From assembly GCA_964460535.1 (NCBI GenBank), contig CAYWQI010000001.1, positions 26,856-90,855 on the forward strand: DNA of 64,000 bases, given 5' to 3'. This stretch comes from Candidatus Woesearchaeota archaeon. Lineage in GTDB: Archaea > Nanobdellota > Nanobdellia > Pacearchaeales > GW2011-AR1. The translations under genes were made by a program, and so were the position numbers. The notes beneath the pieces are model-generated. The model saw only the letters and a list, made by a program, of their open reading frames with translations, was not told the origin of the DNA and ran no database searches. Positions 36,715 through 44,149 of the stretch are shown in pieces; the first letter of the stretch is position 1; the number at the start of each line of letters is the position of its first letter.

Positions 36715-37161
36715 ATGATATATACAAATAGTGATGGAGGAGCAAGAGGCAATCCAGGCCCAGGAGCAATTGGAGTAATAATCAGGGATAATAAAACCAT
36801 TTTAACAAGATATAGCCAGATGATTGGACAAAGAGTAACTAATAATGTTGCAGAATACGAAGCCTTGATAAAAGCACTTGAATTAGCTAAAAATATAACT
36901 TCTGATGAATTAACTTGTATTCTGGATTCAGAACTTGTTGTTAAGCAACTACTTGGAGAATATAAAGTAAAACATCCAAATCTTTTAGAACTTTTTTTAA
37001 AAGTACAAAAATTACAAGAAAATTTTAAAAAAATAACTTATAAACATGCAAGAAGAGAAGAAGAATTTCAACAAAGAGCTGATGAACTTGTTAATCAAGA
37101 ACTTGAAAAATACGGATATCCCAAAAGTGAATACTTTAGAAAAAAGAGATTCAATAAATAA
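36715..37161 (+). CDS. rnhA: ribonuclease HI (type 1 RNase H)
   Basis: DGGARGNPGPGAIGVII...NNVAEYEALIKALELA...DSELVVKQL shows the RNase H1 catalytic pattern. Confidence 0.7.
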   Translation: MIYTNSDGGARGNPGPGAIGVIIRDNKTILTRYSQMIGQRVTNNVAEYEALIKALELAKNITSDELTCILDSELVVKQLLGEYKVKHPNLLELFLKVQKLQENFKKITYKHARREEEFQQRADELVNQELEKYGYPKSEYFRKKRFNK

Positions 37162-37822: not shown

Positions 37823-38054
37823 TATCTGGCAATATTAAATACAAAAATAAAACTAAATATCTTCCATGAAAAAAATTAATTCTAAAAATTTTCAGAGCTT
37901 AAATATAGCAAGGTATAGAAATATCCTCTAATAAGGGATTTAAAGGCACAATTATACAAAAGAACTTCAGAAGATATTAATTAAAATTTCTTATTATTTA
38001 CTACTTCTGTGAAACAGGAAATTATTGAACAAAACTCCAAGTGTTACCAGATAC
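37823..38054 (-). mobile_element. MITE-like dispersed repeat, copy 4 (inverted orientation)
   Basis: 38041-38054 gtgttaccagatac is the reverse complement of the left TIR. 37823-37836 gtatctggcaatat is the reverse complement of the right TIR. The interior is the reverse complement of copy 1. Confidence 0.65.
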
Positions 38055-38109
38055 TATTTTTATAATCTCTTTCATAAAATTTTATAAACTCTCTTTTTCT
38101 CAATACAAT

Positions 38110-39621
38110 ATGTCACAAAAAGAAAATTCTCCTACAGGCAGAGAATTACAAATAATCAATGAAAGAAAAAAGAAAATAAAAGAACTTAAAGATAATAAAA
38201 TAAATCCTTACAAACACAAGTTTGATAAAAAAAATTCTATCTCTGATTGTTTGAATAGTAAACTCAATACAAAAGTTCAAACAGCTGGAAGAATTATAAC
38301 AAAAAGAGATTTAGGAAAAATTTCATTCTATAAATTACAAGACCAGGTAGGAGAAATACAACTCGTGCTTCAAAAAGACAAAACTTCAGAAGAAATAATG
38401 AAATTTGCAAAAAGATATGCTGATTCAGGAGATTTTATTGGAGTATCTGGAAATATCTTTAAGACAAAAACAGGAGAAAAATCAATTCTTGTTGATAAAA
38501 TTGAAATATTAACAAAAGCAGTTTTACCACTTCCAGAGAAATATCACGGATTACAAGATGAAGAAGAAAGATTAAGAAAGAGATATCTAGATATGCTTAT
38601 TAATCCACAAGTAAGAGAAACTTTTGAAATAAGATCCAAATTAATGAAATCTATGAGGGAATTTATGGAAAAAAATAATTTTATAGAAATTGAAACACCT
38701 CTTTTACAAGGAGTTTACGGAGGTGCAGCAGCAGAACCTTTTAAAACTTATTGCAATGCCTTTAATTCTGAACTTTATTTAAGTATTGCTCCAGAGCTTT
38801 ATTTAAAAAAAGCTTTAGTTGGGGGGTTTGATAGGGTTTATGAAGTAACAAAAAAATTCAGAAATGAAGGAGTAGATAGACAACATAATCCAGAACATAT
38901 GACAATTGAATGGTATCAAGGATATGCTGATTATAAAGATGGTATGAATTTAGTTAAAGATTTTATTTGTTATATCTCAAAACAAGTTTTTGGTAAAACT
39001 ATTATAGAATATCAAGGTAATAAAATAGATTTATCAAAATGGCAGACTCTAAGTCTAGAAGATGCAATAAAAAAATATCTTAATGAAGATATATCAAAAA
39101 TAAAAACAAACAAGGAAGCAAGAGAAATAGCAAAGAAACACAATATTGATGAAAAAGGAATAACAAAAACAAATATTGCAGATGAATTAATGAAACTTTT
39201 TAGAGAAAAATTAATACAACCCACTTTTTTGATTGATTATCCAATAGGCTTGGCACCACTTGCAAAAGCAAAACCAGAAGACCAAACAAAAGCAGAAATT
39301 TTTCAACCTTTTATAGGAGGTATGGAATTAGCTAGAGCATATTCAGAATTAAGTGACCCTCAAATCCAGGAAGAGCATTTTAAAGAACAAGAAAAAGAAA
39401 GAGAAGAAGGAAACAAAGAAGCAATGCCAACTGATTCAGATTTTGTTACTGCCCTTGAACATGGTTTACCTCCTGCTTGTGGAGTTGGATTTGGAATTGA
39501 GAGATTAATCATGCTTTTTACAAACAAAACATCAATTAGAGAAGCAATATCCTTTCCTTTTGTGAAACCTGAAACTCAAGAAGAGAATAAGAAAGATAAA
39601 AATAAAATAAATAAAAAATAA
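38110..39621 (+). CDS. lysS: lysyl-tRNA synthetase, class II
   Basis: N-terminal OB anticodon-binding domain plus class II motifs (FIEIETPLLQ, FRNEG..., GGMELARAYSEL, GFGIERL). Start taken at MSQKEN. The ORF-track start at 38041 lies inside the MITE TIR. Confidence 0.8.
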   Translation: MSQKENSPTGRELQIINERKKKIKELKDNKINPYKHKFDKKNSISDCLNSKLNTKVQTAGRIITKRDLGKISFYKLQDQVGEIQLVLQKDKTSEEIMKFAKRYADSGDFIGVSGNIFKTKTGEKSILVDKIEILTKAVLPLPEKYHGLQDEEERLRKRYLDMLINPQVRETFEIRSKLMKSMREFMEKNNFIEIETPLLQGVYGGAAAEPFKTYCNAFNSELYLSIAPELYLKKALVGGFDRVYEVTKKFRNEGVDRQHNPEHMTIEWYQGYADYKDGMNLVKDFICYISKQVFGKTIIEYQGNKIDLSKWQTLSLEDAIKKYLNEDISKIKTNKEAREIAKKHNIDEKGITKTNIADELMKLFREKLIQPTFLIDYPIGLAPLAKAKPEDQTKAEIFQPFIGGMELARAYSELSDPQIQEEHFKEQEKEREEGNKEAMPTDSDFVTALEHGLPPACGVGFGIERLIMLFTNKTSIREAISFPFVKPETQEENKKDKNKINKK

Positions 39622-39774: not shown

Positions 39775-39960
39775 ATGCCACTAATAATAAAATCCCGAAT
39801 AAAAGAAACAATAAAAGAATTAGATAAAGAAAACAACATAGGAAGTGTTGCTGAAGAAGTTGGAAGAGCATTAGAAAGAAAAACTCAAGAAATTCTTGAA
39901 GAAGCAATAAAGAGAGCTAAGGCAAATAATCGAAGAACTCTTTTAGGAAGAGACCTTTAA
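39775..39960 (+). CDS. small histone-fold-like protein
   Basis: 61 aa. The sequence ...VAEEVGRALERKTQEILEEAIKRAKANNRRTLLGRDL has a histone-fold alpha2/alpha3 pattern (RKT...DL). Confidence 0.35.
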   Translation: MPLIIKSRIKETIKELDKENNIGSVAEEVGRALERKTQEILEEAIKRAKANNRRTLLGRDL

Positions 39961-40084: not shown

Positions 40085-40888
40085 ATGACAGAATTTAAAA
40101 TACCTAAACCAAAACCAGATTTTGAAGGAACAGGCTCACCTGTAAACTTTGCAGATGTTAGGGATGTTTATGCTGAGGCTGTAGAAAAGTTAGTTTTATA
40201 TGATTATGCTAAGTTTGGTAAGGATTGGCAAAATAGAGCACTTGATATTTTAATTGGAGATGAGAGGGTTTATTCTCCATCTTCAGAAGGAAAGTGGAGA
40301 GGTTCAAATCCTCCTATCTGTACTTTGATGCAAGAAAAGATTAAAGGATTAGATTTAATTACATTACAACAATCAAGAAGAGCTTATGAAGCCAATGGAA
40401 ATAGACCTCCTGTTCCTAATGCTTATTTTGAACATGGTTGGGCAGTTATTCCTGGACAAAATTCAGATTATAAAAGAAATCCTGAAATTGCTTCAAGACT
40501 TGTGGAAGGTTTAAAGAGTAAAGGAATTGAAGTTGGGAAAGGGAGGGTTATTAATTTCTCCCAATTACATCTTCAACCAGTACAAGATATAAGAATATTT
40601 GATTTTGTTATAAATAATACTACAACAGAAGATAATGTTGCTAAGGTTGGGGATTATAATTGGGATTACGGTTTTCCTAATTCAGCAAGTGGCGCTTTCC
40701 GTGCGATTCTTGGCAGTAACTCGGGCTGGGGTGTCGGCAGAGGCAATCCTGAGATTTCGGGCGAGGATGGTCGGGTAGTGCGGTTTATAGCCGAAGGCGA
40801 CGCGCCAGAAAAATTAAGTTCTCTAGTTCAAGAAAAAGATCCTCTAAAAGAGAGAATCACAGAATTTAGAAAAAGAATTTCTTCTTAG
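40085..40888 (+). CDS. DGR target (variable) protein, with the variable repeat at its 3' end
   Basis: The codons of the 3' region 40696-40777, AFRAILGSNSGWGVGRGNPEISGEDGRV, are the mutated counterpart of the template repeat at 41054-41135. The region is locally GC-rich in an AT-rich gene. Confidence 0.7.
   Translation: MTEFKIPKPKPDFEGTGSPVNFADVRDVYAEAVEKLVLYDYAKFGKDWQNRALDILIGDERVYSPSSEGKWRGSNPPICTLMQEKIKGLDLITLQQSRRAYEANGNRPPVPNAYFEHGWAVIPGQNSDYKRNPEIASRLVEGLKSKGIEVGKGRVINFSQLHLQPVQDIRIFDFVINNTTTEDNVAKVGDYNWDYGFPNSASGAFRAILGSNSGWGVGRGNPEISGEDGRVVRFIAEGDAPEKLSSLVQEKDPLKERITEFRKRISS
40696..40777 (+). repeat. DGR variable repeat (VR)
   Basis: Matches the TR at 64 of 82 positions. Of the 18 mismatches, 17 are TR=A (16 are G in the VR, 1 is T). 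Confidence 0.75.
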
Positions 40889-41053
40889 AAAGTTTTATAA
40901 ATTTCTTTTTTGATTTAATATTCCTAATCAGAAATGGTTAGGCTACACGCCAAATTATTGAGAATACAGATTTTCCTTGCGAGGAACTTCAGTGAGCAAA
41001 ATAATTTTGTGAAATAATAATTTGGCTATTAAGTTCCGTGCGATTCTTAATAG

Positions 41054-41135
41054 TAACTCGAACTGGAATGTCAACAAAGACAATCCTGAGAATTCGAACG
41101 AGAATGGTCAAATAGCTTAGCCAGGGTTAGGATTT
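41054..41135 (+). repeat. DGR template repeat (TR)
   Basis: Intergenic, between the target gene and the reverse transcriptase. In the VR frame it reads F R A I L N S N S N W N V N K D N P E N S N E N, which is rich in AAC/AAT codons. Confidence 0.75.
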
Positions 41136-41141
41136 TTTAAA

Positions 41142-42127
41142 ATGCAAAATCTCTACTACAAAATTTATTCATGGAAAAATATGCTTTCAGCATGGAGAAA
41201 AGCAAGAAAAGGAAAAACAAAGAAAAATTATGTTATGGGGTTTGAAAAGAATCTTCGAGAAAATTTAAAACAATTAAGATTTGAATTAATGACTGAAACT
41301 TATTTTCCTCAGTTATCAAAAACATTTATTTTGCGAGATCCAAAAACTAGAGTTATAAGCAAATCTGATTTTAGAGATAGAATTGTGCATCATGCTTTGA
41401 TTAATATAATTCAGAATATTTTTGAGAGGTCTTTTATTTATGATTCTTGTGCAAATCAAAGAGGCAAAGGAAATTTATTTGCAATTTCAAGATTTGATAA
41501 ATTTAAGAGAAAAGTTACTTCAAATCTTAAACAAGAAGCCTTTTGTTTAAAAGCAGACATAAAACATTATTTTCAAGAAGTAAATCACGAGATTCTTTTT
41601 GAAATTTTACAAAGAAAAATCAAAGATGAAAAAGTTATTAATTTAATTGTAAAAATCTTGCAGAACAGTGCGGACAGAGAGAGAGAGAGACGCGACATTC
41701 TTTATCAAAAGGCATGCCTCTTGGAAATTTAACAAGTCAATTTTTTGCAAATGTTTATCTTAATGAATTAGATTATTTTGTGAAACATAAATTAAAATGT
41801 AATTGTTATATTAGAGATGTTGATGATTTCGTTATTTTGCATAAATCTAAAAAACAACTTGAAATTTGGAAAACCCAAATCTTTCAATTTCTTCAGGATA
41901 AATTAAAACTTGAATTGCATAAAGACAAATCTTCTATTAGAATCCTGTCTCGAGGAATTGATTTTGTTGGTTTTAGAAATTTTTACAAAAAACGTTTAAT
42001 TAGAAAAAGAAGTTATAGAAAAATGAGAGCTAGAATAAAAGAATTTAATAAAGGAAATCTCTCTACAGATAAATTTTTTGAATGTTTTCAAGGTTGGTTA
42101 GCTAATGCAAGATGGCAGGAGTTTTGA
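41142..42127 (+). CDS. DGR reverse transcriptase (two ORFs joined by a frameshift near 41669-41700)
   Basis: RT1 FRDRIVHHAL. RT2 LKADIKHYFQEVNHEIL. RT3 GMPLGNLTSQFFANVYL, containing the DGR-specific [ILV]GxxxSQ. RT5 CYIRDVDDFVIL. RT7 GIDFVGF. The frame switches within ...gcggacagagagagagagagacgcgac... Confidence 0.75.
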
Positions 42128-42179: not shown

Positions 42180-42404
42180 ATGGCAACAACAATTCAAATA
42201 AGTAAGGAGCTTTTACAAGAATTAGCATCTATGAAAATGCATACAAAAGAAAGTTATGAAGAAGTGATCTGGGATTTAGTTGAAGATAGAAAAGAACTTA
42301 GTGAAGAAACTAAAAGAAATTTGGCAGAAGCTGAAAAAGATATCAAAGAGGGAAGAGTACATTCTTGGGAAGATGTTAAAAAGGAGTTAGGATTAAATGT
42401 ATAG
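42180..42404 (+). CDS. putative antitoxin (partner of RelE/ParE)
   Basis: 74 aa, acidic, overlaps the toxin start by 8 nt. Confidence 0.4.
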   Translation: MATTIQISKELLQELASMKMHTKESYEEVIWDLVEDRKELSEETKRNLAEAEKDIKEGRVHSWEDVKKELGLNV

Positions 42405-42648
42405 CATAGTTCTTGCAGATAAATTCAAAAAGCAATTAAAAAAAATTCCAAAACAGGAACAAGAAAGAATCGGTAAGGTCATAGAAAGAATAAAAATACG
42501 TCCTTTTTCACATGCTGAAAGAATTGTGGGAAGCCCCCATTTTAGAGTTCGTTCAGGAGATTATAGAATAATTATTAACATAAAACAAAAAGTATTAATT
42601 ATCTACGTTTTAGAGGTCGGACACAGAAAAAACATTTATAAAAAATAA
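42397..42648 (+). CDS. RelE/ParE-family type II toxin
   Basis: 83 aa. ...SGDYRIIINIKQKVLIIYVLEVGHRKNIYKK is the RelE/YoeB C-terminal signature. Confidence 0.6.
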   Translation: MYSIVLADKFKKQLKKIPKQEQERIGKVIERIKIRPFSHAERIVGSPHFRVRSGDYRIIINIKQKVLIIYVLEVGHRKNIYKK

Positions 42649-43483: not shown

Positions 43484-43680
43484 GATGGTGTAAAAAACAA
43501 AAAAAAGGAATTGAGATTATTGAGCCTAATGAAAATTTAGTAAAAGAATACCTTCAAACAGCAAAGGAAACAACAATTGAGATTGTAAATGAAAATTCAA
43601 ATATGCCAAACAATAAAAATCAAAGATTTTTAAGCATGTCAATTTTAAAAACAATAGAAGAGAAAAATGCCAAACAATAA
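43471..43680 (+). pseudogene. possible truncated HEPN-domain remnant
   Basis: 69 aa. NENLVKEYLQTAKETTIEI resembles a HEPN helix-1. Overlaps the MNT gene upstream and hjc downstream. Confidence 0.2.
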
Positions 43681-44149
43681 ATCAAAAGGTTCAAAAGTAG
43701 AAAGAGAATTGTTTCAGATGTTTATTTCTGAAGGAACTTATAGAGTAGTTCGTGTAGCTGGTTCAGGAACAATGGAAAATGCTGATTGTGATTTACTTGC
43801 TGGAAAAAAAGGGAAAAAATTTGCAATAGAAGTTAAATCTTCAAAAAAACCTATAAAATATATTTCAAAAGAACAAATAGATAGGTTTGTGACTTTTTCA
43901 GAAATTTTTAAATTATATCCAGTTATTGCATTAAGATTTAATAGAGAAGGTTGGTTTTTCATACATCCTAAAGAAATGAAAAAAACACAAAAAAATTGGT
44001 CAATAAATTTAGAACAAGCAAAAAAGAAAGGTAAGAGATTCACCCAGTTTTTTTCTTCAATAAATAAAAAATCAAAATCAAAAACAAATTCTAAAAATAA
44101 AACAAAACAAGAAACAGATTATGACTTGTATTTAGAAAGTTTGAAATAA
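43667..44149 (+). CDS. hjc: Holliday junction resolvase Hjc
   Basis: GSKVERELFQMFISEGTYRVVRVAGSG...DCDLLAGKKGKKFAIEVKSS shows the Hjc catalytic pattern E...D...E.K. Confidence 0.7.
   Translation: MPNNKSKGSKVERELFQMFISEGTYRVVRVAGSGTMENADCDLLAGKKGKKFAIEVKSSKKPIKYISKEQIDRFVTFSEIFKLYPVIALRFNREGWFFIHPKEMKKTQKNWSINLEQAKKKGKRFTQFFSSINKKSKSKTNSKNKTKQETDYDLYLESLK

Follow-up and report, generated by a model that had tools for sequence, protein, structure and literature searches.

We examined a window of 64,000 nucleotides (nt) from a Candidatus Woesearchaeota archaeon (assembly GCA_964460535.1, contig CAYWQI010000001.1; G+C 26.7%), in which a first-pass annotation, made from the sequence letters, had pointed out a diversity-generating retroelement (DGR) consisting of a target gene with a 3' variable region (VR), an intergenic template region (TR), and a DGR-type reverse transcriptase (RT). 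We found that the locus, at window positions 40085-42127 on the + strand, is a genuine chromosomal DGR of the Nanoarchaeota/DPANN type, with the order target-TR-RT and without avd. This identity was supported by all of the tests that we ran: the comparison of VR with TR, the kinship of the RT, the predicted C-type-lectin (CLec) fold of the target, the initiation-of-mutagenic-homology (IMH) site and its TR counterpart (IMH*), a hairpin, an RNA helix flanking TR, and the presence of the same layout in dozens of relatives. The element had also been called complete, which it is not: the RT gene is frameshifted within an (AG)7 repeat, so that translation of the assembled sequence cannot give a full-length RT. 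Repeat tracts recur at this same place in related RT genes.

The target gene (40085-40888, + strand) encodes 267 amino acids (aa), and its VR (40697-40778) spans codons 205-231. The best ungapped register between the 3' part of this gene and the downstream spacer has an offset of 337 nt, placing TR at 41034-41115, 20 nt below the position originally given for it (41054-41135). The original counts were correct: the two 82-bp copies differ at 18 positions, of which 17 are adenines in TR (16 TR-A/VR-G and one TR-A/VR-T, the latter at TR 41092 and VR 40755), and the in-frame translations quoted with them were exact, TR being rich in AAY codons in the target frame. Altogether, 17 of the 30 TR adenines differ from VR and 51 of the 52 other TR positions are identical (binomial P = 4.4e-7 for at least 17 of 18 mismatches on A, with A at 30 of 82 positions). 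The proposal that mismatches would fall only at TR adenines thus held for 17 of 18, the exception being T41051 in TR opposite C40714 in VR. We found no further TR copy in the window on either strand, with TR adenines treated as wildcards, and no other VR; nor did the exact TR sequence match any of the Joint Genome Institute (JGI) metagenome contigs.

For comparison, we scanned GTDB species genomes with an RT alignment and took the best 80 of 587 relatives by tblastn score, nearly all of which were DPANN. The target-TR-RT layout without avd recurs in most of these 80 loci. In most, as in the window, TR lies just upstream of RT (a median of 39 nt to the aligned RT start, in 50 loci) and VR lies 300-500 nt upstream of TR. 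A simple detector found 72 A-specific TR/VR pairs among them, in most of which the homology ends with GGGT(A/G) in VR opposite GAAT(A/G) in TR. The corresponding pair in the window is GGTCGGGTAG (40769-40778), which encodes the GRVV conserved in the target family, opposite GGTCAAATAG (41106-41115), where relatives have GGTCGAATAG; the window IMH* reads AAAT where relatives read GAAT. The last three A/G differences between the window copies (TR 41110-41112 AAA, VR 40773-40775 GGG) fall within this IMH*/IMH pair, and most of the 72 related pairs have an equivalent AA/GG difference. The three differences are therefore a fixed directional mark rather than products of stochastic mutagenesis; since they account for 3 of the 17 A differences, 14 substitutions of the mutagenesis type are left (13 to G and one to T).

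We considered that the 16:1 bias toward G might indicate something other than a DGR, and rejected this idea because A>G is the most common change clade-wide and because at least 90% of the substitutions are to G in 8 of the 72 related pairs. Among 891 changes in the clade, 63% were A>G, 33% A>T, and 4% A>C; excluding the IMH, 48% of TR adenines were unchanged, 33% became G, 17% T, and 2% C. The bias in the window is therefore the high end of a trait of the clade. The window VR is unusually rich in glycine, with five AAY template codons converted to GGY and one GAC to GGC (VR 40712-40775), compared to a GG outcome for 16% of AA doublets clade-wide. Changes were likewise all A>G in three relatives (L050, L040, and L068). 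We also noted that the TRs of five relatives (L010, L017, L053, L068, and L071) have an extra 20-40 nt before the IMH*-proximal segment, often with a small hairpin between CTCG and CGAG, and that their VRs do not have this segment, as if it had been skipped during cDNA synthesis or integration; no such segment was seen in the window TR.

Downstream of VR, GC-rich inverted repeats that could form a hairpin or cruciform lie at 40790-40806, with GCCGAAGGC (3 bp, GAA loop) overlapping GGCGACGCGCC (4 bp). The typical stem at this place in the clade has a median of 5 bp and mostly a 3-nt loop, commonly GAA. The window has both the IMH/IMH* pair and the GC hairpin downstream of it, the latter in a weak form. 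Nanoarchaeota DGRs have been described with the IMH TGGGGT, the IMH* TGGAAT, and a GRA-loop hairpin within the target gene (Paul et al. 2015, PMC4372165). In two close relatives of the target (L022 and L029), we observed the palindrome GACGCCGAAGGCGTC, which would read Asp-Ala-Glu-Gly-Val; coding by this palindrome may be the source of the conserved AEG motif of the target family.

The RNA of the intergenic region appears to be structured around the template. The segment 40889-41175 folds with a z-score of -3.24, and none of 200 shuffled sequences was as stable. A long-range duplex joins an upstream element (40922-40945) with the spacer that follows TR (41113-41132). This duplex has z = -4.7 in the window, and 32 of 50 related loci score below z = -2. 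The upstream element, which extends to 40951, consists of arm A (UCCUAAUC, 40922-40929), arm B (GGUUAGGCUA, 40936-40945), and a conserved CACGCC (40946-40951); arm B pairs with UAGCUUAGCC (41113-41122) and arm A with GGUUAGGA (41125-41132), all on the + strand. In the 10-bp inner helix, the upstream NNNNNGGCYA, followed by a conserved ACAYG, pairs with U(A/G)GCYNNNNN at the TR end. When 32 loci were aligned in a fixed register, 91.3% of the cells were paired, compared to 70.7% in shuffles (0 of 500 reaching the observed value). We note that this register was chosen by maximizing the pairing on the same 32 sequences, so that the weight falls on covariation and on slid registers as controls: both sides have changed in 7 of the 10 pairs, one pair is CG in 16 loci, UA in 16, and unpaired in none, and slid registers paired only 18-49% of the cells. 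We had considered a local hairpin after TR, and dropped it in favor of the long-range helix because RNAalifold found no structure when run with the MAFFT-aligned TR-to-RT spacers and single-sequence folds of that spacer were no better than shuffles.

The target protein is identical to a hypothetical protein from a Nanoarchaeota archaeon metagenome-assembled genome (GCA_048617275.1, contig JBMCHU010000001.1). It has no Pfam or NCBIfam match, and clustering at 90% identity returned only itself. An exhaustive HMMER search yielded 32 representatives, whose alignment shows a conserved scaffold, GLFRAxLxxxxxWxxxxxxLxxSxxxGRVVxxxAEG, around hypervariable positions. The first-pass annotation had suggested comparing the target with folds of the C-type-lectin and formylglycine-generating-enzyme-like kind; a confident AlphaFold2 (AF2) model (pLDDT 89.7, pTM 0.87) indicates a divergent CLec fold, with no significant Foldseek match to the model in the PDB and no sequence link between the family profile and AvpA or any PDB chain. 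In many of the related DGR loci, VR lies in a gene of this family (L021, L022, and L029, among others; E < 1e-88). The closest homologues (L003, L004, and L005; 35-45% identity) have housekeeping genes as neighbors and neither RT nor TR on their available contigs (3.7-13.5 kb), and thus tell nothing about the DGR; they are either remote targets or non-diversified paralogues, and relatives of AvpA have likewise been reported with no RT or TR nearby (PMC5006420). On another contig, of 938 nt, a family protein (L006 85-684, P0145) has an Asn-rich, template-like variable segment, YLNRNGDWNSNNDNLANSNDNGR, which could be an unmutated VR or a VR/TR chimera.

The RT gene (41142-42127, + strand) is divided between two open reading frames (ORFs), an N-terminal part at 41142-41732 and a C-terminal part at 41714-42127, in a frame 2 nt ahead of the first. 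Each matches Pfam RVT_1, at profile positions 8-115 and 119-204, respectively. They overlap by 19 nt, and the second begins at the near-invariant Met of motif 3 (GMPLGNLTSQ). Both ORFs had been recorded correctly as an adjacent pair, and they are really one gene, broken within (AG)7 (41676-41689): deletion of a single AG yields one RT of 327 aa. Thousands of proteins of Nanoarchaeota, Pacearchaeota, Woesearchaeota, and Paceibacteria, all uninterrupted, align with 98%-100% of its length at 61%-67% identity. The motif LGNLTSQ ([ILV]GxxxSQ; 41720-41740), which had led to the assignment of the RT to the DGR type, is where it was reported to be, and its GNLTSQ is invariant in a 17-sequence alignment.

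By sequence profile and by fold, the RT is an enzyme of the DGR clade, nearer to DGR RTs than to those of group II introns or retrons. Against the PDB, the family profile gave E = 6.5e-55 for the DGR RTs of the 8ub7 series, compared to 1e-30 at best for group II intron RTs and 2e-4 for one from a retron. The best solved match was the RT of the DGR ribonucleoprotein (RNP) 8ub7/8ubd, both in sequence and in fold (TM 0.68-0.71), and the five best Foldseek matches of an AF2 model were all DGR RNP entries (TM 0.63-0.71). NCBIfam models for group II and retron RTs scored far below their cut-offs (135 vs. 300 bits and 44 vs. 235 bits). Scans of viral contigs gave no hits with poly-G and two with the motif alone; the clade is cellular.

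As first reported, there is no avd-like ORF between target and RT, because the end of TR is only 26 nt before the RT ATG; moreover, we found no avd-sized ORF beside target, TR, or RT, and no other accessory gene (HRDC, MSL, or CH1). The absence of Avd does not disqualify the element, because 29% of catalogued DGRs have no accessory gene (architecture A; PMC5758913). In its host lineage and in its compact target-TR-RT arrangement without accessory gene, the window resembles the DGRs described from Nanoarchaeota and other DPANN (Paul et al. 2015, PMC4372165; Wu et al. 2017, architecture A1, PMC5758913), and it follows those of Nanoarchaeota in having GGGT in IMH with the related IMH* logic (GAAT), a GRA-looped GC hairpin within the target gene, and A-specific differences (PMC4372165). 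It differs from these published elements in the RT frame broken in (AG)7, in CAAAT rather than CGAAT in IMH*, and in Asp in place of the Tyr of YxDD. Thus, the earlier idea of a distinct accelerated-evolution system does not hold; the element is an ordinary member of a very abundant and already published type (PMC4372165, PMC5006420, PMC5758913).

Two characterized systems offer further comparison. The closest solved relative of the RT is that of the DGR of Bordetella phage BPP-1 (bRT-Avd-DGR RNA, PDB 8ub7-8ubf; bioRxiv 10.1101/2023.10.23.563531), with 26% identity and TM ~0.7, which shares the [ILV]GxxxSQ motif, the A-mutagenesis signature, and the IMH/IMH* logic. In the BPP-1 RNA, segments on either side of the template pair with one another (the avd:Sp cPRT-stop duplex), recalling the helix described here. 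In contrast to BPP-1, the window has no Avd, its target is chromosomal rather than a phage tail fiber, and its TR-RT spacer is ~26 nt rather than ~140 nt, so that the partner strand of the helix lies upstream of TR, in the gap between target and TR. The target resembles AvpA, the variable protein of a nanoarchaeal DGR (Handa et al. 2016, PMC5006420), in its size (~260 aa for AvpA) and in a CLec fold that is undetectable by sequence. The two also share a short VR (~27 codons) with a fixed hydrophobic residue inside it and a C-terminal extension of ~36-46 aa after VR, the DNA of which holds the IMH and the hairpin.

The frame of the RT gene would be restored with (AG)6 or (AG)9, that is, by one unit fewer or two more. 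We considered that the frameshift might be an error of sequencing or assembly and that the true gene is in frame, as dinucleotide repeats are prone to stutter in PCR. A Logan assembly of run SRR11308339 is identical to the window over 10,893 nt, with the whole element and its frameshift within this span, and was produced by a different assembler, although the reads behind the two assemblies are probably the same. A systematic Illumina error would be unexpected in a tract as short as (AG)7, and the same out-of-frame state occurs in more than 50 unrelated contigs from many projects. Thus, we regard such an error as highly improbable.

Several features set this tract apart. No other dinucleotide repeat of at least 5 units occurs in the 64-kb window, and no homopolymer in it is longer than 8: the number of A/T runs declines smoothly with length as far as 7 (169 runs), with 40 runs at length 8 and none beyond, so the genome appears to avoid slippery tracts, with that in the RT gene excepted. 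The tract encodes a variable loop (residues 177-196 of the fused RT, pLDDT < 50) that lies just before motif 3 and is absent from the Bordetella bRT. In the 80 related loci, there were only nine A/T runs of length 9 and none longer, and G runs were bimodal with a second peak at 9-10; this homopolymer profile looks like genome-wide purging of slippery tracts with few exceptions.

Most members of the RT family are plain ORFs with no tract. Among the 120 closest full-length RTs, 22 have a repeat-type peptide in the loop, mostly RERE or GGG, and the genome loci with a tract included one with (AG)13 in frame (L008) and others with G9-G10. We then scanned metagenomes for (AG)≥6 followed within 3-33 nt by codons for GMPLGNLT and obtained at least 120 stretches; because the scan was preselected on the repeat, the frame counts that follow refer to tract-bearing RT genes only, and to the matches listed. 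Of 66 scorable loci, 10 were in frame (ON) and 56 (~85%) out of frame (OFF), with 30 of the latter needing one more unit and 26 one fewer. At 90% nucleotide identity, the loci formed 60 clusters, of which eight were ON, 50 OFF, and two mixed [P(≤8/58 ON, given 1/3) = 6.5e-4]. In most of the OFF loci, tblastn found both halves of the RT, as two high-scoring segment pairs in different frames with the break at residues ~175-190, and few internal stops or other lesions. An A-specific TR/VR pair was kept in 26 of the 36 metagenomic tract loci that had enough flank. RTs with only 50%-70% identity to that of the window have tracts in this same loop, which are thus maintained across lineages.

One explanation of this predominance of OFF genes is recoding, in which RNA polymerase (or, with lower probability, the ribosome) would undergo programmed slippage at (AG)n or poly-G, providing a steady low level of full-length RT, with the length differences in DNA as a by-product. 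The 50 OFF among 58 single-state clusters in the listed set, with halves mostly free of stops, fit an OFF sequence as the normal expressed form, and slippage requires tracts of the length and purity seen here, which reach (AG)19 and include runs of G. However, the two wrong frames are nearly equal among the listed loci (30 vs. 26), so that slippage in both directions would be required; in-frame alleles occur in the same near-identical lineages; and most family members are plain ORFs with no tract. Moreover, known sites of transcriptional slippage are mostly runs of A or T. We therefore consider recoding quite unlikely.

A search with the C-terminal half of the window RT returned as its best 120 hits only C-half ORFs (137-236 aa), ~100 of which start at the Met of GMPLGNLTSQ, and many of which are on long contigs. 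Four of these hits, sampled without preselection for a repeat, all had the arrangement target-TR-split RT with a tract at the junction: two had poly-G runs, one had (AG)7, and one had mixed (AG)/(CG). These ORFs, like the exact start of the window C half at this near-invariant Met with its 19-nt overlap, would also fit a split enzyme, in which the two ORFs are translated separately, the second from this Met, and assemble into an active RT, as with other nanoarchaeal split genes. However, a stable split could do without a long pure repeat; in most of the family, the RT is fused and has no tract; the out-of-frame tails of the N-terminal ORFs differ, in two wrong frames; and the Met is conserved in fused members as well. 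Accordingly, a split enzyme seems very unlikely.

Near-identical contigs differ in the number of repeat units, and in the mixed clusters the tract is essentially all that separates the alleles. L102 with (AG)9, OFF, and L161 with (AG)10, ON, have 2 mismatches in 1070 nt; L104 with (AG)19 and L164 with (AG)16 have none; and L093 and L146 likewise differ from L132 in repeat number. In another near-identical pair (L125 and L133), one AG unit is accompanied by a second 2-nt indel ~30 nt upstream, such that the same wrong frame is kept; the second indel may mark another slippage site or a compensating change.

From these observations, we favor, with somewhat better than even confidence, the interpretation that the locus is a DGR of the Nanoarchaeota/DPANN type with a phase-variable RT, which is OFF in the window. 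In the mechanism that we envision, the RNA from ~40920 to 41140 would be the DGR RNA, as judged from the family, and the covarying helix between the element ~90 nt upstream of TR and the 20 nt after TR would clamp the template. The RT would copy TR into cDNA, misreading adenines, and the cDNA would replace VR, guided by IMH (GGGT) versus IMH* (AAAT; GAAT in relatives) and by the GC hairpin after VR, such that ~10 codons of the ligand-binding face of the predicted CLec-fold protein would be rewritten. The hypermutable (AG)n sits in a dispensable surface loop of the RT before motif 3, with (AG)7 putting the catalytic half out of frame, and slipped-strand mispairing by -1 unit or +2 units would restore it. 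The repeat would thus act as a stochastic, heritable, and reversible switch, such that only a minority of cells would carry out targeted hypermutation. The sequences themselves show the anatomy, the family membership, the frameshift within the repeat, the recurrent and mostly out-of-frame tracts of relatives, and the differences in repeat number between near-identical contigs. We infer that switching occurs within populations, that OFF may be favored because ON is costly, and that the window copy may still be able to work despite Y225D (see below).

Several points against this interpretation concern the window copy itself, and they lend support to the view that the element is a decaying relic: a slip of the usual inactivating kind would have shifted the RT frame, VR would be frozen, and the target would now evolve like any other gene. 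The codon GAT at 41816-41818 encodes Asp225, changing YIRYVDD to YIRDVDD at the Tyr of the YxDD box, which is Tyr in 120 of 120 homologues and in the Bordetella bRT (ARYMDD). In addition, of 114 alignment columns with a conservation of at least 95%, the window RT deviates at 5, compared to a mean of 1.65 among the homologues, 3 of 120 of which reach 5. Together, these changes suggest relaxed constraint on this copy of the RT. The stem after VR is among the shorter ones of the clade (4 bp, median 5), and this weak hairpin, with Y225D, raises the chance that the copy is decaying. A relic would also accommodate the AAAT in IMH* and the glycine-rich VR, which could reflect drift or selection after freezing, given the GG frequency of 16% noted above.

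The rest of the evidence for phase variation likewise comes with limits. A sister allele with another repeat number was not found for the window, whose RT relatives are at most ~70% identical; the length of its tract is known from two identical consensus assemblies, and ON/OFF differences in repeat number were seen in relatives only. The 80 genome loci, chosen by tblastn score, were all uninterrupted and do not measure the overall fraction of split RTs, nor can a frequency be derived from the search with the C-terminal half, which seems biased to targets of similar length, full-length RTs with similar C halves being absent from it. Finally, an excess of OFF over 1/3 would also be expected with transcriptional slippage or with mere tolerance of OFF alleles.

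Nevertheless, a dead element does not account well for several observations. Neither half of the window RT has stop codons or additional frameshifts, and TR, IMH/IMH*, the hairpin, and both arms of the covarying helix are intact. Furthermore, the same single lesion in the tract occurs in dozens of independent lineages with no secondary decay, which irreversible death does not predict. Thus, we consider it unlikely that the element is dead. A maintained slippage switch fits better than repeated irreversible decay, because the tract persists, the halves are intact, and near-identical strains straddle the frame boundary. We put at about an even chance the wider proposition that the RT of DPANN DGRs, and of some in the candidate phyla radiation (CPR), is a contingency gene, in which a selected (AG)n or poly-G tract keeps the RT off in most cells and replication slippage activates it in a few, such that two diversity generators are stacked, with the window OFF.

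The tracts resemble the contingency loci of Neisseria, Campylobacter, Haemophilus, and Mycoplasma (PMC3315296, PMC11868660), in which alleles of a pure mono- or dinucleotide tract in a coding region differ by one unit and switch the frame, near-identical strains differ only in repeat number, and the rest of the genome avoids tracts. Known contingency loci are in bacteria and encode surface antigens or restriction-modification methylases, whereas here the switched gene would be an archaeal one, for the mutator enzyme of a second diversification system. In the literature that we searched and compared, which did not include the CPR/DPANN survey of Paul et al. 2017, the papers on Nanoarchaeota/DPANN DGRs mention neither a repeat in the RT loop nor a mostly out-of-frame state, and we found no report in which simple repeats, phase variation, or frameshifts were connected with the RTs of DGRs.

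The locus brings nothing new as a DGR, given that thousands have been catalogued from DPANN and CPR and that its cis elements are those already described in print. Its interest lies in the control of a hypermutator. The regulation of DGRs is poorly understood, signs of recent activity have been seen in only 50%-75% of them (Roux et al. 2021), and surveys have scored many as inactive with no cause given. A tract that leaves ~85% of the examined tract-bearing RT genes out of frame, with halves intact and one-unit differences between strains, offers a concrete mechanism for such control. If the interpretation is correct, a second switch, itself stochastic and heritable, would determine whether the lectin-fold protein undergoes targeted hypermutation, and this would be a documented case of phase variation by simple-sequence repeats in archaea. 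Such elements would also be missed or mis-scored systematically wherever annotation pipelines or DGR finders demand an unbroken ORF for the RT.

The neighbors of the element include ordinary archaeal genes for RNase H (36715-37161), a class II aminoacyl-tRNA synthetase (tRNA-synt_2, lysyl/aspartyl type; 38041-39621), a 61-aa histone-fold-like ORF (39775-39960), and Hjc resolvase (43667-44149). Directly downstream of the RT (42180-42648) is a toxin-antitoxin pair, in which a 74-aa antitoxin-like ORF, with weak matches to DUF7557 and VapB that are both below the Pfam cut-offs, overlaps an 83-aa ParE-family toxin. The flanking genes of split-RT relatives vary from locus to locus: one (L210) is flanked by a ParE toxin and another (L209) by a PIN/MazE pair. 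The latter also adjoins an acylphosphatase gene and a tRNA-synt_2 gene, and the tRNA-synt_2 neighbor that it shares with the window hints at a conserved chromosomal site.

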